64,000 nt of DNA from an uncultured Pseudomonadota bacterium (GCA_903844155.1 CAIMSU010000259.1:15808-79807), one strand, 5' to 3'. Counted from the stretch's first letter, positions 1 through 37,249 are shown. Made by a program: numbers and translations. The notes: generated by a model from the sequence alone, not told the origin.

Positions 1-1384
1 CGCGCCACCGGTGCTCCTCCGTCCCAAGGTCAAACGTCTTCCCGTTCCGCGCCTCGATCACGCCGACGCGGCGCTGATGATCGGCCCACAGCGCCACCCT
101 CGGCGCGAGCCAGGCGGCGTCTTTTGGCCCTTCCCCCTCCCAGCCCAGCCGTCCCCACAACGTCTCGCTGTCGGTGCCCCCGTAGTTCCCAAGCGGTCGC
201 CCGTCCTGCGTGAACCCCTCGTGGTACACGCGGTGCCCCACGTACCAGCGAAACGTATCGTCCATCAACCGGCTGAATTCCCCGTTCACCGTGACCGGTC
301 CGACAGCAACCTCGCCGCCGTAGATGTTCGCGACACCCGCCAGCGACGGGTACGGGATCCCGAACGCCTTGCGCGCGATGACGTCCTCGCCGCCGTACTG
401 CCAGTAGCCCTCGGCATGGCGGATCGGCACGTCGGGCAGCCACTTCTGGACGGGGAGGTTGATGCGGAAGTCGAGCGCGACGAGCTCGTCCTGGTCGGGG
501 AGCAGCAGGTTCGGGTCGTTGTAGATGTGCGGCTCGGTCGGAATGATGAGCTGCCCGATGTTCGCGGGCGGGCGACCCTCGCCGCCGAACAGCGTCATCC
601 GCGTGACGCCAAGCTCCAGCTCGGGGATCGGCAGCCAGCGCGCATCGCCGACCATCAAGCCCACGTTGTTCCAGTCGCCGCGCGGCTCGCCGAGCCAGCC
701 CACCTGCAATTCGCCGCGTAGACGGCCGAGGTAGCGGAAGACCCAGGGCAGCCTCCCCTCCCCCGACACCGTGCCCATCCAGGGCGGCACCGCGTTGTCC
801 GTCAACGTGAGCGACCCATGGCGCGAGGGCCCGAACCACCGGTCCTCCCGTCCAAACCCCACCGTCAACCCGCCAACGTGCACGCCCGCCCAGATGTTCT
901 TCACGTCAATGAGCCCGTCGACCGCCGCGCCGTCCGTGGTCAGAAAACCGGTCCGGATCCAGGGCGTCGCCCGCACCTCCACCGGCCCCCAAACGAGGAG
1001 GCCCGCGGTCGAGAGCTGGGGCGTGAAGCCGCCGGGCTCCTCCTCGCCGCCATTGTTCTCGGGCACCCCGTCGCCGACGGAGAGGTGCAGCTTCGGTTCA
1101 ATCAGGTAGAACGCGCCCTTTGACCAGCCGGCCAGCGGGGTCACCGCGCCGTCGAGCGCCACCACAAGCGGATCGTCGATTGGCGCGCCGAGCAGCCTGT
1201 CGACGGCGTCGTCGCGGGCAGCGGCGTCCGACTCGATCTGGCCGGAGGTCTGGTCGATGGCGAGGGGGTCGGCGTGAGCTGGTGCGGGTCCAAGCGCACC
1301 CAGGACCACCACGGTCAGGCCGCAACATGCCGTCGCAGCGCAGCGGTTCGGGCGACGTGCATCAGCGGCAGGCATCGCGCGCAT
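1..1384 (-). CDS. wzi: Capsule assembly Wzi-family outer-membrane protein (3' end runs off window)
   Basis: Manual translation (absent from the ORF track because there is no stop in the window): frame open from ATG 1384 to base 1. Signal-like N-terminus; GFGREDRWFGPSRHGSLTLTDNA resembles the Wzi GR-x-x-x-W-x-GP-x-x-x-GSL-x-L-S/T-x-NA motif; many amphipathic beta-strands. Confidence 0.7.
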   Translation of the reverse strand, partial: MRAMPAADARRPNRCAATACCGLTVVVLGALGPAPAHADPLAIDQTSGQIESDAAARDDAVDRLLGAPIDDPLVVALDGAVTPLAGWSKGAFYLIEPKLHLSVGDGVPENNGGEEEPGGFTPQLSTAGLLVWGPVEVRATPWIRTGFLTTDGAAVDGLIDVKNIWAGVHVGGLTVGFGREDRWFGPSRHGSLTLTDNAVPPWMGTVSGEGRLPWVFRYLGRLRGELQVGWLGEPRGDWNNVGLMVGDARWLPIPELELGVTRMTLFGGEGRPPANIGQLIIPTEPHIYNDPNLLLPDQDELVALDFRINLPVQKWLPDVPIRHAEGYWQYGGEDVIARKAFGIPYPSLAGVANIYGGEVAVGPVTVNGEFSRLMDDTFRWYVGHRVYHEGFTQDGRPLGNYGGTDSETLWGRLGWEGEGPKDAAWLAPRVALWADHQRRVGVIEARNGKTFDLGTEEHRWR

Positions 1385-1399
1385 GGTAGCTTGGCATCG

Positions 1400-2305
1400 A
1401 TGCCGGTGCCCGATCTCCTCCCCGCGGCCTGGCGCCCACTGCCGGCGGAGGGGCCGCCGCCGATTGCGCTGCACGCCCAGCTCCAGGCCATCGGCTGGGA
1501 CTACGGCGACCGCCTTGCCGAGCTGGAGGAGGAGACGATGGGGGGGCGCACCGCCAGCCCCGTGTTCGGCCAGACAGTCGCGCAGGCCGACATCTACTGG
1601 CGCTTGAGGGACGCGACCGGGCGCGGCTCCTGGCTCCCGGACGACGCAGCCACCACCTGGCGCGACACCGCCCTCGCCGGCAGCCTGCTCGCCGTCAACA
1701 AGCTCGTCGACGAGACGGTCGCGCGCGCCCCGCAGATCGAGACGATTCGCACCGCGCTCGACCTCGTCGCCAACCCAAACCTCTCGCTCGCCCTCCCAAA
1801 AGGACGAAACGCGACATTCGGGCATGAGACCGGCGGCGAGAACGCGCGAAAGGTGGCCGCCCAGGAGCTGCAGCAGGCGCCCGACCCGAACGGCCGGGGC
1901 CGACCAATGGTCCCGAAGGTCAACTTCGGCCTCAACTGGAGCACGCGCGCGTCCGACGCACCCCCCGGCACGCCGTTTCTGGAGTACGGCGCGTGGATTT
2001 CAACGACCAGCATCGGGATCAGCAACTTCCGGGCGGACTATGACCTGCTGCACTCCGCCTGGTCGCTGACCGGCCGTGAGAAGCTGGCACGCGGCATCTT
2101 CCTGGTCGCGACCGCTCGCAGTGACACGAAGGCGCCGACCGCATCTGCGTGGACCGCGGGGCTGATGTGGACCCCGCCCTGGACCCTCGGCTGGACCTTG
2201 CGCGCCGACCGAAAGCAGACGTTTGACCTGAACCCGGACGTCACCTGGACCGTCTCGCTCGTCGGCGAAGAGCACACCGCGACGCCCCGCGGCGTACTCT
2301 ACTGA
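1400..2305 (+). CDS. Hypothetical protein, possible beta-rich C-terminal region
   Basis: ORF 1274..2305; ATG 1400 (MPVPDLLP) avoids overlap with wzi; aromatic-rich alternating strands in the C-terminal half. Confidence 0.6.
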   Translation: MPVPDLLPAAWRPLPAEGPPPIALHAQLQAIGWDYGDRLAELEEETMGGRTASPVFGQTVAQADIYWRLRDATGRGSWLPDDAATTWRDTALAGSLLAVNKLVDETVARAPQIETIRTALDLVANPNLSLALPKGRNATFGHETGGENARKVAAQELQQAPDPNGRGRPMVPKVNFGLNWSTRASDAPPGTPFLEYGAWISTTSIGISNFRADYDLLHSAWSLTGREKLARGIFLVATARSDTKAPTASAWTAGLMWTPPWTLGWTLRADRKQTFDLNPDVTWTVSLVGEEHTATPRGVLY

Positions 2306-3120
2306 CCGGGGAGGGCGCCCAGCTTCGTCCGGGCCTCCAGGAACTCGTCCTGCGTGTCCACGGCTGAGCGCCAGCGGTACAGCATCATCGGCTGCACCTT
2401 CATCAACGCGACGATCTGCCGCTGCGCCAGCGCCGATTCGCGGTGCAGCCACCACGCCAGCAGCTTGCGGTCGCGCGCGCCCCCCCGCGAGGCGGTGAGG
2501 ATGGTGCTCGGATGGACGCCGGTGTACCGGGCGACGAAGAGGAGCGCGACTTGCGCCTCGGCCTCCAGGAAGACGTCGTCCCCAAGCGACTCCTTCGCGC
2601 CGCTGTCCCGGTGGTCGGCGCAGTAGCGCACAAATCCGTCCCAACCGCCGTAGTGGGCGAGCAGGCGCTCGGGCTTGAGCCACGCGGGCCGGTCGTCGCC
2701 ACGCCATGCCGAATGGCTCGTCTCCCGACCGCGGTGGAGCTGCTCCACGTCGGTGAACCGTGGCACGGCGGTCGCGTGGATGTAGAACGGCAGGTACTCA
2801 AGGTGCGCGGCGTTCGTGACGGGCCGACGCCAGGAGGGCCGAACAAAGATTGGGCCGCGCTCGCCTTCGATCGCATTGCGGAAGCGGGCGAGCGGCGCCA
2901 GGACGTCGCGGAGGGCCTGCCCAAGCTCCTGCTCGTCTGGCGTCGCGACGAGCAGGTGCGCGTGGTTGGGCGCGAGCGCGTAGGCGGCGACGCTGCAGCC
3001 ACGGCGCGCGAACTGATCGCAGCGGGCGAGAAAATCGTCCCGCAGGACCGCGTCCCGGAACACCGGCACATCATGCGCTGCTTTGATGCCTACGTGGACG
3101 TACGTGGGGTCGTCAGTCAT
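2299..3120 (-). mobile_element. REP-associated tyrosine transposase (RAYT, IS200/Y1 HUH superfamily) with C-terminal HTH-like extension
   Basis: AYALAPNHAHLLV (HUH motif), YIH (catalytic Tyr position), VFRD..RDDFL, G-P-IF, and WLKPERLLAHYG all follow the RAYT pattern; extra ~90-aa helical C-terminus. Confidence 0.8.
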
Positions 3121-3187
3121 GGGATCTCCACCCGCCCGCTATCCCACCGTTACAATCCTCGGCGTGCATTTCGGCACGACCGGCCCC

Positions 3188-4609
3188 TCAGATCGCCATG
3201 CCGTAGAGCCCGTAGAGCATCATCTTCGGGTTGATGGTCTTCAGGTCGATGAGCTGCTTGCGGACTTGATCGTAGCGCATGTAGAACCGACGCAGGCCGT
3301 AGCTCTGCATCTGGATGAGCAGCTCCGGGTCGTAGCCTTCGGGGTGGTAGATGAGGCGGTCGGCGTCGGGGTTGAACGTTGTGTAGTTCTCCCAGTCATC
3401 GCGGAACAGGGTCTTCTGCCACTGGTCCTCGAACAGCTTGGACCCCGGAAAGGGCACGGTGATCGCGAACTTTGCAAAATCGAGCTTGAGGTCGACGGCA
3501 AACTCGATCGTCTCCTTCGTCATCTCCGGCGTCTCGCCCGGCATGCCGATCATGAAGAGCCCGACGGTCTGGATGCCGGCCTTGCGGGCGTTCTCCACGC
3601 CCCAACGCACCTTTTCGGTGGTGAGGTTCTTGTTGACGTTGCCGAGCAGCATGTCGACGCCCGACTCGATGCCGATGAGCACGCGGCGACAGCCGCCTTC
3701 GTACATCGTGCGGCACGTCTCGGCGTCGAGGCGGTCCGCGCGCGTCTCGGAGAGCCACACGCACTTTTGATCGAGCTTGCGACGGACCAGTTCCTCGCAG
3801 AAGGGCGTGAGATCCTTCAGCACGAGCGGGAAGATCGGGTCGACGAGGCCGATCTGCTTCACGCCGTAGCGGTCGACGAGGTACTCGTACTCGTCGACGA
3901 TCTTGATGGGATCGCGACGGCGATACACCTTGCCCGAGTGCAGCAGGCTGCAGTAGTCACATCGGTAGGGACAACCTCGTGAACCCGTCATCGTCAGGAT
4001 GGGCTTGTCCATGTCCGCGAACGGCAGCAGGCCGTAGCGGTGGTAGGGCGTCAGGTCCCAGGCCGGGTAGGCGAGCGAATCGAGATCGCGGCGTAGCGCG
4101 CGCGTTTTGTTCGTCACCGGCTCGCCGTGGACGCCCGCCCGGCGGTCCATCCACGTCAGCCCGTCGACCTTGGAGAAGTCGGTCTCGCCCGACTCCAGCG
4201 CGGCGACCAGCTCGGTGATGGTGTCCTCGCCGTCGTGATGGACCACGAAATCGGCCGAGCCGGCGCGCAGGATGTCCTTGGCGAACACGTCCGCGTGGAC
4301 GGCGCCCCAGACGATCTTCACGTTCGGCAGGACGAGGCGGATGGCCTTGGCCAGCAGCTCGCAGGTCGGCGCGCTTGGCGTCAACACGGTCATGCCGACG
4401 AGGTCGGGCGCGAACCGCTTGGCCCGCTCGACGACCTGTGCGCCGCTGAGCTTTTCGGCGAACATGTCGATGAAGCGGGTCTGCACGCCGGCGGCCACGA
4501 GCGCGCCCGCGATGTAGGCGATGCCCGTCGGGGGCATTGGCTCAAGCAAACTGGCAAAGCGGCCGAGCTTCGCCATGTTCATCGCGGGGTTTATGAGGAG
4601 AACGCGCAT
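3188..4609 (-). CDS. Cobalamin-binding radical SAM protein (class B methyltransferase/BchE-like)
   Basis: N-terminal B12-binding domain (PPTGIAYIA...), GCPYRCDYC cluster motif, GIESG, FMIGMPGET. Confidence 0.9.
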   Translation of the reverse strand: MRVLLINPAMNMAKLGRFASLLEPMPPTGIAYIAGALVAAGVQTRFIDMFAEKLSGAQVVERAKRFAPDLVGMTVLTPSAPTCELLAKAIRLVLPNVKIVWGAVHADVFAKDILRAGSADFVVHHDGEDTITELVAALESGETDFSKVDGLTWMDRRAGVHGEPVTNKTRALRRDLDSLAYPAWDLTPYHRYGLLPFADMDKPILTMTGSRGCPYRCDYCSLLHSGKVYRRRDPIKIVDEYEYLVDRYGVKQIGLVDPIFPLVLKDLTPFCEELVRRKLDQKCVWLSETRADRLDAETCRTMYEGGCRRVLIGIESGVDMLLGNVNKNLTTEKVRWGVENARKAGIQTVGLFMIGMPGETPEMTKETIEFAVDLKLDFAKFAITVPFPGSKLFEDQWQKTLFRDDWENYTTFNPDADRLIYHPEGYDPELLIQMQSYGLRRFYMRYDQVRKQLIDLKTINPKMMLYGLYGMAI

Positions 4610-6618: not shown

Positions 6619-6650
6619 CCCGTCTCAGAAACGCCCTACGCGATTCTGAG
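6619..6650 (+). repeat. REP-like palindromic repeat, copy 1
   Basis: cccgtctcagaaacgccctacgcgattctgag is identical over 32 nt to 37218..37249; stem ctcagaa/ttctgag plus cgc/gcg, loop cctac. Confidence 0.85.
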
Positions 6651-6805
6651 CCGCGGACATAAATTGTCCGGGGCGGTCTGGCTTTAGGCTATTGGATCCG
6701 GCGCTTTGGTTAAGCGCGGTGCCGCCGGGCCTCCGCCGGCTTTTCACTCCCTTGTCACCGTCGCGCGCCAACTGGGGTAAAATCAGGCGCTCCGCGGTGA
6801 TCTCC

Positions 6806-10252: not shown

Positions 10253-10323
10253 ATGATCCAGAACCGCCCTCTGCGGTTCTGGATCATCATGATCCAAAAG
10301 CGCCCTCTGCGGTTCCGGATCAT
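10253..10323 (+). repeat. Tandem pair of 35-nt hairpin repeats, same core as 6619/37218
   Basis: 10253..10287 is a perfect 15-bp stem (atgatccagaaccgc/gcggttctggatcat) with loop cctct; 10289..10323 is a variant copy; cgtc lies at 10244..10247. Confidence 0.85.
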
Positions 10324-30884: not shown

Positions 30885-31229
30885 CTACAGGGGTTCTACC
30901 GGCGCTACGTCGTCCTCGTCGTCGTCCTCATCGTCGTCCGGGTCCCAGTCATCGTCATCGTCGCCGTCGTCCGAGGCGTCGTCGTCGTCGTCTTCGTCGA
31001 ACTCCTCCTCGGCCTCGTCGTCGAGATCGTCAAGGTCGTCGTCCATGTCCTCATCACCGATGTCCGCGGACTCGTCCGTGTCCTCGTCGTCGACGTCGTC
31101 GTCCTCCAGGGCGTCGTCGTCAAAATCATCGTCGTCAAAAGCGTCGTCTCCCGGAGCGGGCGGGTCCGGAGGCGCCGCGTGGACGGGCCATTTCGGGGCG
31201 AGGAGGGCGACAGGGGCGGGGGTCGGCAT
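30885..31229 (-). CDS. Small, extremely acidic (Asp/Glu-rich) protein
   Basis: GGAG RBS-like site upstream of TTG-ATG; Pro/Ala head followed by an ~80-residue D/E tract; regular GAC/GAG codon usage. Confidence 0.6.
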   Translation of the reverse strand: MPTPAPVALLAPKWPVHAAPPDPPAPGDDAFDDDDFDDDALEDDDVDDEDTDESADIGDEDMDDDLDDLDDEAEEEFDEDDDDDASDDGDDDDDWDPDDDEDDDEDDVAPVEPL

Positions 31230-31958: not shown

Positions 31959-34900
31959 ATGTGGAGTATCCTGTCGCCGATGCGCTCGGTGCTGCGCCAC
32001 CACGAGCCTCCGCAACCGGCCCGGCGATGGCAGGGCCGTCTCCCCATCCTCCTCCTGTTCGCCTCCACCGGCGTCGCCCGCGGCGCCACGGGCGGTCCTT
32101 CCGCCGCAAACCTCGTCTACACCGACTCCGCGGAGCCCGGCGGCCCGACCCACGAGTGGCTCGACGCGACTGGAGGCGATTCCATCGTCCTCGGCGACGA
32201 CGACAGCGCCCCGGTCACCCTCCCCTTCGCCTTCTCCTTCGCCGGTAGTTCCTACTCCAGCGCGACCGTCTCCTCCAACGGCGTCCTCTACTTTGCCGGC
32301 ACCGACACGGACGGCACCACCACCGACCCGAACGGCGCCTGCCCCACAGCCGCGGGCTGGACCGGCATCGCCGTGTTCCAGGACGACCTGGCCGCCAGCA
32401 CCGTGCACACCCGCACGTTCGGCCGCTACCCAGATAGAACCTTTGTTGTTTCATGGGACACCCTGCAGCCTGTCGGAAGCCCGTCCGCCGGTCGCGCGCA
32501 GCTCTGGCTGCTGGAGGGCCGCAACGAGGCCGTCATCGTGCTGGACGACCTCACGTTCGGGGATGCCGGCCACAATGGCGGCGCCAGCGCGTTCATCGGG
32601 GCGGCAGCGGCGGGCGACGGGCTCGCGTACACGTGCGCGGGGGGCGTGCCCGACGGCACCAGCGTCTGGATGGGCGACGAGACCTCGCGGCCGGGGCGGA
32701 TCAACATCCGCACGGACGAGCTGGGCGCGCCGTGGGGGGGCGACATCGACTTTGCCTACGCGGGAACCTCGGTCGCCGCGGGCGACGTGAACGGGGATGG
32801 CGTGGATGATGCGCTGGTTGGCGCGAAGGATCGCGGCTACGGGCAGGCGTATTTGATGCAACGACCGTGGACCGCGGGGACGTTTGACGGGGCCGACGCC
32901 GTCTTCTCCGGCAAGGCCTCGGGCGACGCGTTCGGCACCACGGTGCTGCTCGACGACGTCGATGGCGACGGGCTGGCTGACGCGATCATCGGGGCGCCGT
33001 CCAACGACGATGCGGGCACGAACAAGGGCAAGGTCTACGCCTGGCTCGGCGGCGCGCTCAACGGCAGCTATGCAGCTTCTACCGCTGATTTCACGGCGAA
33101 CGGCGATGCGTCCGACCGCCCGGTCGCCGGCACGTCGCTCTGCGCGAACGCGGACGTGGATGGCGATGGCTACGCGGACCTGCTCGTCGGCGCCCCGGAC
33201 TCGGACCTCGGCGCGACAAATGCTGGTTCCACCTACGTCTACTTCGGACCGCTGGCCGCGGGGAGCCCGACCGCCGGTGCGACGCTCTACTCGGCGACCG
33301 CGTCCGACCGGTTCGGAACGAAGGTTGCGGCCGGGGATCTCGATGGCGACGGCAAGGCCGAGCTGATCGTGTCCTCGCCGCAGAACGACGGCACGGCGTC
33401 GGACGCGGGGGTGGTGTACGTGTACTCGGGCGGGAGTTGGTCAGGTTCCAACGAGGCGACGGCGTCGGCCGACTGCACGTGGAAGGACACCACCGCGTCC
33501 GATCGCTTCGGCTCCTCGCTCCTGGCCGCGGACATCGACGGTTCCGGCGCCCTCGACCTGATCGCGGGCGCTCCGTACGGCAATGGTGCGGCCTCCGACG
33601 CCGGCTATGTCTGGGTGCTCTACGACCCCGGGCTGGGCGGCTGCGAGACGACGACCGCGTCGGCCGATGCTGCCGTCAACGGCATCGCGGCCTCGGCGAA
33701 CCTCGGGATGCAGCTCGCCGCCGGGGACATCGATGGCGACGGCGTCGACGACCTGGTGATCAGCGCCACGAACGGCAAGACCGACGCGGCGGGCGGGGGC
33801 ATCGTCTACGTGTTCACCACGCCGCCCTGGGGGGCGGTCTCGGCTGACGATGCCGACCACGTCGTGCTCGGCGAGTCGACCGGCGGCGCGTTCGGAACCG
33901 GCATCGCGGTCGCGAAGGACGACGACCCGTGGCCAACGCTGCTCGGGACAGCGCCCTACGCCAACGGCTCGCACACGGCGGAGGGCGCGCTCTATTCCTG
34001 GGCGTACACCCCGGACTTTCTGGACGACGACGCCGACGGGTTCGTGGACGTTGGCGCAGGCGGCAACGACTGCAACGACAGTCAGGCCAGCGCCTACCCC
34101 GGAGGGCGCGACGTTTCGGACGGCGGCACCGGATCCGACAACGTGGATGGGGATTGTGACGGTTGGACCGATGGTGTCATCATCGCCCGCGCGGACGAGG
34201 ATGGTTTTGACTACGATCTGGCCGACCTCGGGTACTCCGGCGGTGGTGCGCCGCACACGTTCGATTTCGAGAGCTATGCGGCCGCGGATCTGCTTGGCGA
34301 CTACGTCGGCGACAAGGCGACGCTGTCCTTCTCGCGCGCCGTGTATGCGAGCGACGACGTTTTCGGCACCTTCCCCGACGGTAATATTGGCGCTTCGTTC
34401 GCCCCGGATGTGTACACCGGCATCACGATGAGCTCGACGAGCCCCATCGAGGCGATGTCGTTCTCGCTCCTCGACCCCAACGACACGTTCACGCTCACCG
34501 CGACCGGCTCCGACGGCACCATCACCTTCAATTTCGCCGACAGCGCCAATGACCGCACGGGCGGCAGCTACCACGGCTTCTCCTTCGCTTTTCCCGTCGA
34601 CTCGGTCACGCTCACGCCAGCCGGGGGCGACGGTTTTGGCCTTGACGACATCGCGATCCTCTACGCGACCGAGACCGACCACGACGGCGACGGCTACACC
34701 GAGGACAGCGGCGACTGCGACGACAACCGCGCGGACGTCAACCCGAGCCAGCCCGAGCTGATGGGCGACGGCATCGACAACGACTGCGACGGTGTGATCG
34801 ACGGCGGCGAGGCGGTCGCGTACACCGACGAGGCCACGTGGTTCGCGGCATCCGGCATCGCGGTCGAGCAGAAGATCGACTTTGAACGCCTGTCAGCCAC

Positions 34901-37190
34901 CGATTCGCTGACCACCCAGTACGTCGACCTTGGCGCGCAGTGGGACGCCGGGGCCCTTGGAGCGCGCGACATCGACGGCACCCCTCCCATCGACACCATC
35001 GCCGCCTCGGACGACGGCGGCACGCTCGTCACGTACTTTGAGGTCCAGCAGCCGGCGGTCGGGTTCTACCTGCTGAACGGGAGTGGCACATTCACCGTGG
35101 AGGCCTATCTACACGGTGTATTGTCCTACACAACGGCCATCACCCCCTCGACCGACGACCAATTCGTCGGCATCGACTACGACTACGAGGTGGACGAGAT
35201 CCACATCGTCCCGCCGACTGCAGGGGACGGAACCCCTGACCTCTATGGCATCGACAACCTCGTCTACTCGGCGCTGAGCCTGGACGACAAGGATGGCGAC
35301 GGACAGACCGCGGCAGAGGGCGACTGCAACGACAGCGACCCCACGGTGTACACCGGTGCGACAGACACGCCCTACGACGGCGTCGACTCCAACTGTTCGT
35401 CGTGGGACACCAATACAAGCAACGACAATGACTACGATGCCGATGGCGACGGGTATGCGTCGAGTGCGTACGGCGGGACGGACTGCAATGACAGCAACGC
35501 CGCCGTGAACCCGGACGCGACCGAGACCTACTACGACCGCGTCGACCAGAATTGTGACGGTCAGAACGACTACGACTCCGACGGCGACGGGTATGTCTCA
35601 CAGGCCTGGGGCGGCACGGACTGCAACGACAGTAGCTCGGCTGTCAGCCCGGACGCGACCGAGACCTACTACGACGGCGTCGATCAGAATTGCGATGGTC
35701 AGAACGACTACGACTCCGATGGCGACGGCTACGTCAGCGCCGCCTACGGTGGCACCGACTGCAACGACGGGTCCGCGACGACCAACCCGGACGCGACCGA
35801 GATCCCCTACGACGGCATCGACGAGAACTGCTCCGGCGGCAGTGTCATCGACGACTACGACGCGGACGGCGACGGCTATGTCTCGGCAGCCTATGGAGGA
35901 ACGGACTGCCGCGATGACGTCGCCAGCGCCTACCCGCATGCCCCCGGGGAGATCTGCTACGACGGCATCGACACCGATTGCGACGGGGCCAGCGACTATG
36001 ACTGCGATGGCGACGGCTACGACTCGATCGACTACGGGGGGACCGACTGCGACGACTCCGACGACACGATAAATCCAGGCGCAACCGACATCATGGGTGA
36101 CGGCATCGACTCCAACTGCGACGACGCGCCCGACTACGACTTTGACGGCGATGGCTTTGATGACATGGCCGACGGCGGCACCGACTGCGATGACACCAAC
36201 CCAGACATCTACCCGGGTGCGGTGGATGACTGTTACGACGGCATCGACGCGGATTGCGCGGGCGACGACGATTTTGACTGCGACAAGGACGGCGACGACT
36301 CGGATCTGTACGGCGGCGGCGACTGTGCCGATGACAACCCCGAGATCTCGTCGTTGATGGAAGATTTTCCCTACGACGGCGTCGACATGAACTGCGACGG
36401 TCTGGATGACTACGACGCCGATGGCGACGGCCACGACTCGATCTGGTACGGCGGCGATGACTGTAACGATGACGACGCGACCATCCACCCCGGTGCTGTG
36501 GACGCCTGCTACGACGGCATCGACAGCGACTGCGACAGCACTTTCAGCGACGACGACTGCGATCACGACGGCTACGCGATCCTGACGGCCTCCGACGCGC
36601 CTGACGACCCGACGAAGGACTGCGACGACACCGACGCGACCGTCCACCCCGGCGCGACCGAGATCGCCGGCGACGGCATCGACCAGGACTGCTCTGGCGC
36701 CGACCTGTGCTCCGACTGCGATGGCGATGGGCACGTGGACGTTGCCTACGGCGGCGACGATCCCGATGACACCGACCCGAACGTGTACCCCGGTGCGCCC
36801 GGCTCGGACTCGGGGGTCGACAGCGGCGAAACGGACAGTGCCCGAAGCGACACCGCAGCCGCGGGCGACACCGCCCGCTCGGACACTGCCCGCTCCGACA
36901 CTGCGCGCGACTCGGGGGGCGGCGATGCGGACACGGACACCGATTCAGACACAGACACTGACGCAGACGCGGACACCGACACGGACTCCGACACCGCCAC
37001 AGACACAGACACCAGCGCCAACGCCGACTCTGGCGACTGGCTGCCGGACTCCGGGTACGACACCGGGCCCTACCTGACGAACGTCACCGTCACGCCGACG
37101 GGGACGTGCGGTTGTGCTAGCGGCGGGGATTCGGCTGGGTTCGCGGGGCTGCTCCTCGCGCTGGCGATCACCAGAAAACACCGGTCGTAA
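31959..37190 (+). CDS. Large surface protein: NIDO-like domain, 7 FG-GAP repeats, ~13 MopE-like metal-binding repeats, MYXO-CTERM-like anchor
   Basis: LGDDD..V.LPF.F.F...Y....VSSNG N-domain; seven FG-GAP-type blades; repeated DxDGDG..DC.D..P.A.E..YDG.D.NC; C-terminal CGCASGG + hydrophobic helix + RKHRS. Start may be 31980. Confidence 0.9.
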   Translation: MWSILSPMRSVLRHHEPPQPARRWQGRLPILLLFASTGVARGATGGPSAANLVYTDSAEPGGPTHEWLDATGGDSIVLGDDDSAPVTLPFAFSFAGSSYSSATVSSNGVLYFAGTDTDGTTTDPNGACPTAAGWTGIAVFQDDLAASTVHTRTFGRYPDRTFVVSWDTLQPVGSPSAGRAQLWLLEGRNEAVIVLDDLTFGDAGHNGGASAFIGAAAAGDGLAYTCAGGVPDGTSVWMGDETSRPGRINIRTDELGAPWGGDIDFAYAGTSVAAGDVNGDGVDDALVGAKDRGYGQAYLMQRPWTAGTFDGADAVFSGKASGDAFGTTVLLDDVDGDGLADAIIGAPSNDDAGTNKGKVYAWLGGALNGSYAASTADFTANGDASDRPVAGTSLCANADVDGDGYADLLVGAPDSDLGATNAGSTYVYFGPLAAGSPTAGATLYSATASDRFGTKVAAGDLDGDGKAELIVSSPQNDGTASDAGVVYVYSGGSWSGSNEATASADCTWKDTTASDRFGSSLLAADIDGSGALDLIAGAPYGNGAASDAGYVWVLYDPGLGGCETTTASADAAVNGIAASANLGMQLAAGDIDGDGVDDLVISATNGKTDAAGGGIVYVFTTPPWGAVSADDADHVVLGESTGGAFGTGIAVAKDDDPWPTLLGTAPYANGSHTAEGALYSWAYTPDFLDDDADGFVDVGAGGNDCNDSQASAYPGGRDVSDGGTGSDNVDGDCDGWTDGVIIARADEDGFDYDLADLGYSGGGAPHTFDFESYAAADLLGDYVGDKATLSFSRAVYASDDVFGTFPDGNIGASFAPDVYTGITMSSTSPIEAMSFSLLDPNDTFTLTATGSDGTITFNFADSANDRTGGSYHGFSFAFPVDSVTLTPAGGDGFGLDDIAILYATETDHDGDGYTEDSGDCDDNRADVNPSQPELMGDGIDNDCDGVIDGGEAVAYTDEATWFAASGIAVEQKIDFERLSATDSLTTQYVDLGAQWDAGALGARDIDGTPPIDTIAASDDGGTLVTYFEVQQPAVGFYLLNGSGTFTVEAYLHGVLSYTTAITPSTDDQFVGIDYDYEVDEIHIVPPTAGDGTPDLYGIDNLVYSALSLDDKDGDGQTAAEGDCNDSDPTVYTGATDTPYDGVDSNCSSWDTNTSNDNDYDADGDGYASSAYGGTDCNDSNAAVNPDATETYYDRVDQNCDGQNDYDSDGDGYVSQAWGGTDCNDSSSAVSPDATETYYDGVDQNCDGQNDYDSDGDGYVSAAYGGTDCNDGSATTNPDATEIPYDGIDENCSGGSVIDDYDADGDGYVSAAYGGTDCRDDVASAYPHAPGEICYDGIDTDCDGASDYDCDGDGYDSIDYGGTDCDDSDDTINPGATDIMGDGIDSNCDDAPDYDFDGDGFDDMADGGTDCDDTNPDIYPGAVDDCYDGIDADCAGDDDFDCDKDGDDSDLYGGGDCADDNPEISSLMEDFPYDGVDMNCDGLDDYDADGDGHDSIWYGGDDCNDDDATIHPGAVDACYDGIDSDCDSTFSDDDCDHDGYAILTASDAPDDPTKDCDDTDATVHPGATEIAGDGIDQDCSGADLCSDCDGDGHVDVAYGGDDPDDTDPNVYPGAPGSDSGVDSGETDSARSDTAAAGDTARSDTARSDTARDSGGGDADTDTDSDTDTDADADTDTDSDTATDTDTSANADSGDWLPDSGYDTGPYLTNVTVTPTGTCGCASGGDSAGFAGLLLALAITRKHRS
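35281..36800 (+). repeat. Intragenic tandem repeats, ~138-nt (46-aa) period
   Basis: ccggacgcgaccgag recurs at 35511, 35649 and 35787 (138-nt spacing); about 10 contiguous units plus one partial. Confidence 0.9.
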
Positions 37191-37217: not shown

Positions 37218-37249
37218 CCCGTCTCAGAAACGCCCTACGCGATTCTGAG
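37218..37249 (+). repeat. REP-like palindromic repeat, copy 2 (may also act as a terminator between convergent genes)
   Basis: Identical to 6619..6650; the stem here extends to ccccc-cgtctcagaa / ttctgagacg-aggggg. Confidence 0.85.

Follow-up and report, generated by a model that had tools for sequence, protein, structure and literature searches.

A divergent RAYT-type nuclease gene with a DnaA-like C-terminal domain and its probable partner, a family of 63-nt palindromic repeats, in an uncultured bacterium

Introduction

Can a nuclease gene of the REP-associated tyrosine transposase (RAYT) type that has no intact hairpin beside it still be tied to a repeat family, and if so, to which one? 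The question is raised by a 64,000-nucleotide (nt) stretch of DNA from an uncultured bacterium (GCA_903844155.1, CAIMSU010000259.1:15808-79807), called the window below, in which a gene on the minus strand (2299-3120) with an ATG start codon encodes a Y1 HUH protein of 273 amino acids (aa). An initial annotation, made from the sequence alone, described a divergent RAYT-type protein without flanking repetitive extragenic palindromic (REP) sequences, stably resident and either serving three dispersed hairpins of the window in trans or repurposed for a host role. Here we argue that the gene is an ordinary member of a known RAYT/TIRYT system and not an orphan: it is probably a helix-turn-helix (HTH)-bearing RAYT (TnpA_REP subclass 2.1, or TIRYT) and the single-copy, vertically inherited partner of a family of 63-nt repeats. 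The genome that holds the window (G000) is a fragmented metagenome-assembled genome (MAG) of 8.13 Mb in 375 contigs, with 69% GC.

Results

Taken alone, the window protein is hard to place. It scores 13.2 bits against PF01797 Y1_Tnp (cut-off 23; E=0.1) and 17.5 bits against NF047646 REP_Tyr_transpos (cut-off 80; E=0.003), its C-terminus gives weak matches to HTH_23 (E 0.11) and HTH_Tnp_1, a sequence search of the PDB found no match, and a word-indexed homologue search returned only 3 relatives. An exhaustive profile search gathered 1470 cluster representatives at E<=1e-3, mostly of 270-330 aa; distant members of this family lie above the Pfam Y1_Tnp cut-off and have weak C-terminal matches to Bac_DnaA_C, HTH_23, or HTH_24. 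A profile built from 60 sequences of the family matches two kinds of structure in the PDB: Escherichia coli TnpA_REP (4ER8; E 4e-6, profile positions 34-140) and chains of DnaA domain IV (2HCB, 1L8Q, 1J1V, and 3PVP; E 7e-6 to 1e-4, positions 206-300).

Structural modeling points the same way as the profile. An AlphaFold2 model built on the family alignment has a mean predicted local distance difference test score (pLDDT) of 91, and a Foldseek search with it places 4er8_A at the top (E 2.6e-5, TM-score 0.63 on the target), followed by 29 IS200/IS605 TnpAs that include those of ISDra2 and IS608. The N-terminal domain (residues 1-176; 2593-3120, minus strand) is modeled with the beta-alpha-beta-beta-alpha-beta-alpha order of IS200/RAYT enzymes. 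The C-terminal domain (residues ~182-269; 2314-2577, minus strand), predicted as five helices with pLDDT >=90, resembles the HTH domain IV of DnaA; it corresponds to the helical extension of about 90 aa noticed earlier, which is borne out at pLDDT above 90. Fold, motifs, and the profile match to 4ER8 support the identification, predicted from sequence and model, of the window protein as a divergent RAYT-type Y1 HUH protein, as the initial annotation had it. The predicted union of an HUH nuclease fold with a DnaA-IV-like HTH domain is the architecture of TnpA_REP subclass 2.1/TIRYT and is matched by the published description, subclass 2.1 having been equated by Quentin et al., 2018 (PMC6006769) with the TIRYT/TIRtron class of Di Nocera et al., 2013 (PMC3733652).

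Most of the catalytic residues are in place. In E. coli TnpA_REP, the ligands of the catalytic metal are H59, H61, and N119 (PMC3479197), and the family profile alignment covers the HUH region of 4ER8. The HUH motif of the window protein, H53-A54-H55 (2956-2964, minus strand), is shared by the family: of the 149 other representatives, 5 have a gap at these columns and 142 of the remaining 144 have His. The putative catalytic Tyr113 (FYIH; 2782-2784, minus strand), which is Tyr in 146/149 representatives, lies within a modeled helix (104-117) and aligns in the profile comparison with the catalytic Y115 in the YIYINP motif of the E. coli enzyme. The conserved Ser a short way beyond the Tyr is likewise present (S135, in ETSHSAW; Ser in 141/149 representatives). 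The retained HUH (NHAH) and Tyr were thus correctly read at the outset, and so were three replacements of signature residues. Two of these, family NRG to IKA and FRGRF to FVRPS, are old changes, because the orthogroup, four proteins with 72-80% identity, shares them throughout. The third, T117-A118 in place of a near-invariant Asn-Pro (2767-2772, minus strand; codons ACC-GCC), is unique to the window copy among 150 representatives. Position 117 is equivalent to the metal ligand N119 of E. coli TnpA_REP; Asn is found there in 147/149 other representatives, and the three close orthologues (72% identical) and all four paralogues in the same genome have it as well. The two representatives that lack it, P0079 and P0085, have also lost the Tyr and the HUH motif (which reads R-Y-E), so catalytically dead derivatives of the family exist elsewhere. 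The window copy differs from these in keeping the nucleophilic Tyr and two metal ligands and replacing the third. M50A, at a position that is 96% conserved, is a second change specific to the window.

The repeat partner is visible beside the gene in reduced form. The 67-nt spacer between the start codon of the HUH gene and the stop codon of the upstream radical SAM gene (3121-3187, minus strand) folds no better than its shuffles (z = -0.44) and holds no intact hairpin, in keeping with the initial annotation, whose statement that the gene is without flanking REPs is nevertheless partly mistaken: positions 3147-3172 (minus strand), between the two genes and 27 nt upstream of the start codon, match one 26-nt arm of a dispersed palindromic family exactly (gene strand, GAAATGCACGCCGAGGATTGTAACGG). 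This arm, a REP singlet of 'B type' in a family of 63-nt inverted doublets, came to light when the tail of a hairpin (...GGGGTGAGCGATGTAACGG) beside the orthologue at locus L001, in the sister MAG G001 (GCA_009692605.1), was searched for in the window's own genome. The full 26-mer also occurs exactly at C15 and C108, and its 21-nt core is exact at four loci, the window locus included. The 3' side of the gene has no arm. At the orthologous loci L001 and L015 (protein P0003, in a third genome; 72-73% identity), full palindromes of the 63-nt family stand on both sides of the gene, and those at L001 are long hairpins.

In G000, the 63-nt family comprises about 75 arms, spread over about 46 loci. 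The complete doublet reads GT[TG]ACAATCCTC(A/C)TCCCGCATTTCGTATC, a loop of ~5 nt, and GATACGAAATGCGGGA(T/G)GAGGATTGT[AC]AC, with the termini GTTACAATCCTC..., and arms of a second type (...GAAATGCACGCCGAG...) are freely combined with these. All complete copies have the same length (26/26), and near-perfect ones have folding energies of about -31 kcal/mol (z about -10 to -11). Covariation between the two arms of the palindrome did not rise above shuffled controls, so the elements look like doublets of independent arms in the manner of REPINs (paired, inverted REPs) and not like one selected stem. On C15, C23, C94, C153, C156, C212, and C294, copies are found no more than a few hundred nt from a contig end; the repeats appear to break the assembly, and the copy numbers are therefore lower bounds. 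A loose regular expression tried for a logo of the repeat flanks was swamped by false matches and dropped.

The association between gene and repeat extends across genomes. A degenerate arm pattern allowing <=3 mismatches, searched in 25 related genomes with reversed patterns as controls, gave 48 matches in G000, 6 in G001, and 0 in the 23 other relatives, three of the same genus among them; the reversed controls gave 0. G000 and G001 are exactly those of the 25 relatives that have an orthologue of >=72% identity. Homologues with 41-44% identity (in G004, and P0005 on a metagenome contig) have yet another repeat family on both sides. More distant relatives (L006, L008, and L009) carry inverted repeats of 30-33 nt at both gene ends, as described for TIRtrons; those of L006 and L009 begin GGGGTC... 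and GGGGAC..., and the motif GGGGWSAS is absent from the repeat of the window's orthogroup.

The gene is stably resident, as the initial annotation had supposed. There is one orthologue per genome, and in three genomes it occupies the same locus beside a 472-aa radical SAM gene (rSAM472). On the other side of the HUH gene, the sister genomes, two of the three, share genes for a HAD hydrolase and for another radical SAM protein (551 aa). This side is rearranged in the window genome, which carries the gene for the 551-aa protein on contig C294. Only the HUH gene is inverted in G001, with the same neighbors around it (L001 10001-10804, compared with L015 2075-2905 and window 2299-3120). G001 and the L015/L016 genome share both neighbors (rSAM472 at 99% and the HAD hydrolase at 87% aa identity), and the window shares the rSAM472 side only (96%). 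The arrangement of these sequences suggests that the inversion in G001 was a flip between the flanking palindromes.

Three pairwise comparisons of the HUH gene give dN/dS of 0.17-0.25 at dS of 0.95-1.2, and the neighboring genes give 0.01-0.10 at dS of 0.5-1.0. With dN/dS of about 0.2 and synteny across three genomes, the HUH gene is maintained, and the comparisons show that it has descended vertically under moderate constraint. Relative-rate tests found no acceleration on the window branch (p>0.2). Xenologous replacement was suspected because the neighbors are 96-99% identical and the HUH protein is ~72% identical, and was found to be unsupported, the dS of the neighbors being of the same order as that of the HUH gene.

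The window gene is one of five paralogues in its genome, 32-40% identical to one another, and each of the other four is abutted by a dispersed palindrome family of its own. The C182 paralogue (C182:8247-9068), whose closest relative elsewhere is 42% identical, lies between inverted copies of GTCTCAGAAACGCCCTACGCGATTCTGAG, each about 35-60 nt away from the gene. The family numbers 24-25 copies, among them two of the three hairpins that had been proposed as substrates of the window enzyme, those at 6622 and 37221 (given initially as 6619 and 37218). It was found in G000 only and is absent from G001, which has an orthologue of the window gene; the co-occurrence of gene and hairpin proposed as a check thus turned out against these hairpins, and the window gene co-occurs with the 63-nt family instead. 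The C113b paralogue has the CCGGATCTGAGCAGCTCAGATCCGG family on both sides. The C113a and C268 paralogues have a member of their own family at the 3' side only, so one-sided flanks are in themselves no sign of decay.

The third proposed hairpin is a member of a separate and small family with about 7 loci. It consists of two tandem 35-nt palindromes (ATGATCCAGAACCGCCCTCTGCGGTTCTGGATCAT) at window 10253-10323, and no paralogue was found beside any copy at these loci. This family and that of the 6622 type have the core GAAnCGCCCTnnGCGnTTC in common. The repeat of the 6622 type (window 6622-6720 and 37221-37249; 25 copies) extends past the hairpin to a second module, GGACA-N5-TGTCC or GGACATTTTTTGGC, with a GGTTAG box about 25-35 nt beyond it, and most copies point toward a nearby start codon. 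This repeat may carry a promoter or operator.

The setting of the HUH gene is otherwise as first described. Its reading frame is backed by GC content by codon position, with the high third-position GC (GC3) expected in a genome of 69% GC. Its TAG stop (2299-2301) overlaps by 7 nt the stop of a convergent open reading frame (ORF) at 1274-2305, and the 67-nt spacer separates it from the co-oriented, upstream gene for a B12-binding radical SAM protein (3188-4609, minus strand; 473 aa). No tnpB-like ORF was seen adjoining it. Scans around the gene and the spacer found nothing promoter-like or terminator-like, so that the radical SAM and HUH genes may be co-transcribed, and an Rfam scan around the gene had no match. 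The radical SAM gene has BchE and HpnJ as its best model matches, both far under cut-off, and is very strongly conserved (96-99% aa identity, dN/dS 0.01-0.05). The convergent ORF (1274-2305, plus strand) has coding GC3, no family match, and an ending of ...RGVLY; it looks like an outer-membrane beta-barrel protein, and it lies next to a Wzi-like gene (minus strand, 2-~1387). As annotated, these two overlap in their 5' parts, so at least one start codon must be mis-set. Farther along, window 34000-36800 and 30900-31150 hold 138-nt tandem coding repeats of Cys/Asp-rich modules (...DCNDxxxxxNP...DGxDxxCD...) and a long Asp-rich acidic stretch.

Discussion

The reading of this gene as an orphan nuclease is corrected by the repeat beside it: the gene has a repeat partner of its own. 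The protein would combine a single-stranded DNA nuclease domain of the HUH type, in which His-x-His forms the metal site and helix alpha-D carries the nucleophilic Tyr, with a DnaA-IV-like DNA-binding domain. By analogy with E. coli TnpA_REP, it may bind the 63-nt repeats where they fold into hairpins in single-stranded DNA, such as that of the replication fork, and, following the E. coli and IS608 paradigms, it could cleave beside the arms through a 5'-phosphotyrosine intermediate, with rejoining of strands possible. Doublets would thereby be maintained or moved in trans, and the earlier suggestion of an enzyme acting in trans on dispersed repeats, as other RAYTs do, probably applies to this family. 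The window locus itself would be an eroded form of an ancestral arrangement with repeats on both sides. Given the eroded flank and the unique Asn to Thr change at a metal-ligand position, the catalytic rate may be reduced; despite both, the HUH gene as a whole is under purifying selection.

Several observations weigh against the pairing of an active enzyme with the 63-nt family. The window protein alone scores far under both curated cut-offs (PF01797 and NF047646), its near-invariant metal-ligand Asn is Thr, and the other family members without the Asn are clearly dead enzymes. The link between gene and repeat is supported by adjacency in three genomes and by co-occurrence in 2/25, in an assembly that is a MAG of 375 contigs. 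The 63-nt family is also heterogeneous (the commonest 21-nt arm accounts for 7/75 arms), and together with the lack of covariation this means that recent mobility is not demonstrated. Alternatively, the window copy may be catalytically crippled, either on its way to loss or retained only to bind DNA through its HTH domain and hairpin-binding surface, for instance as a regulator or repeat protector, with the 46 repeats being fossils or served by another paralogue. We consider this rather unlikely, although it draws on the two changes (N117T and P118A) seen in no other of the 150 representatives, the first of them at the equivalent of ligand N119, on the window-specific M50A, on the repeats lost relative to the orthologues (the whole 3' copy and half of the 5' one), on the diversity of the 63-nt family, and on the precedent of the dead derivatives P0079 and P0085. 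The HUH motif and Tyr are intact, however, a Thr could still supply an oxygen ligand, the window branch shows no acceleration in relative-rate tests (p>0.2) and is included in the dN/dS of about 0.2, and the C113a and C268 paralogues are likewise one-sided in their repeats. The unique loss of the metal-ligand Asn makes repurposing for a host role, also raised by the initial annotation, possible as a minority reading.

That the window enzyme is instead the cognate nuclease of the hairpins first given as 6619, 10253, and 37218 is very improbable. These are dispersed repeats of the same genome (the 6622 type has 24-25 copies, the 10253 type about 7 loci), but the 6622 type flanks the C182 gene on both sides in inverted orientation and is missing from G001 in spite of the orthologue there, and the window gene, like its orthologues, is associated with another family, the 63-nt one. 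We give even less credence to a transposase of an autonomous insertion sequence (IS) of the IS200/IS605 type, to which the Y1 HUH fold and the many IS200/IS605 TnpAs among the structural matches might point: there is one copy per orthogroup, the paralogues are just 32-40% identical, the chromosomal locus is the same in three genomes, no tnpB is present, and the protein, with its added HTH domain, is roughly double an IS200 TnpA in size. A pairing of the HTH-bearing RAYT with the 63-nt repeats therefore remains our preferred explanation. More speculatively, and with little expectation of being right, we note that the window copy may be a natural intermediate between a RAYT nuclease and a non-cutting DNA-binding protein, having lost a metal ligand and most of its repeats and kept purifying selection. 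Separately, and just as speculatively, flips of the gene cassette between palindromes could couple its expression to the upstream radical SAM operon or uncouple it, a slow on/off switch for repeat mobility.

The findings leave the general picture of RAYT/REPIN systems unchanged. They add a Myxococcota example with five divergent HTH-bearing RAYT-like genes in one genome, each paired with a distinct palindromic family, and so bear on whether subclass 2.1/TIRYT enzymes service dispersed repeats at all. Four points go slightly beyond the literature consulted: genes of the subclass 2.1 type with long palindromic, REPIN-like dispersed partners; five gene-repeat pairs in one myxobacterial genome; inversion of the gene in place between genomes; and a copy in which the Asn ligand alone has been lost. 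The unique Asn to Thr change offers a simple biochemical test of the weight of the third metal ligand in this enzyme class.

Among known systems, TnpA_REP subclass 2.1/TIRYT is the one to which the gene probably belongs. In both cases a Y1 HUH protein of ~270-330 aa ends in a domain that resembles Bac_DnaA_C, HTH_23, or HTH_28 and has a conserved Ser (S135 here) beyond the helix of the Tyr. Also shared are inverted or self-complementary repeats beside the gene (on both sides in the orthologues, a single arm in the window) that can form moderately abundant dispersed families, and the possibility of several distinct gene-repeat pairs per genome. No REP-like sequences were reported near subclass 2.1 genes by Quentin et al., 2018 (PMC6006769), whereas the flanks of the window type are long palindromes with dozens of dispersed copies; self-complementary families of terminal inverted repeats (TIRs) were seen by Di Nocera et al., 2013 (PMC3733652). 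Many TIRs carry GGGGWSAS, a motif absent from the repeat of the window's orthogroup, and the window copy lacks the invariant Asn-Pro.

The E. coli TnpA_REP/RAYT (YafM, 4ER8; Messing et al., 2012, PMC3479197) is the best structural match, with HUH motif and alpha-D Tyr that align, and is also a single-copy gene tied to a genome-wide family of hairpin repeats. It is only 12% identical to the window protein, is shorter (165 aa) and without an HTH domain, and has a C-terminal tail with E161 and a ligand H123, neither of which is conserved in the window protein, where N119 is in addition replaced by Thr. Its REPs are about 35 nt long with a GTAG guide, whereas the units of the window family are inverted doublets of 63 nt that end in GTNAC. 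IS200/IS605 TnpAs (IS608 and ISDra2) have the same catalytic fold and presumably act on single-strand hairpins by the same chemistry, and differ as multi-copy mobile elements with defined ends and often a tnpB, served by a dimeric TnpA of about 130-155 aa without an HTH domain. The organization of the repeats resembles that of the Pseudomonas REPINs (Bertels and Rainey, 2011; Bertels et al., 2017, PMC5581495), in which two inverted REP arms likewise form a doublet of fixed length, singlet arms are decayed forms, and each REPIN population has one vertically inherited RAYT. Here the RAYT is of another clade and bears an HTH domain, the copies are far fewer (about 46 loci), and the arms are of two sequence types that mix freely.

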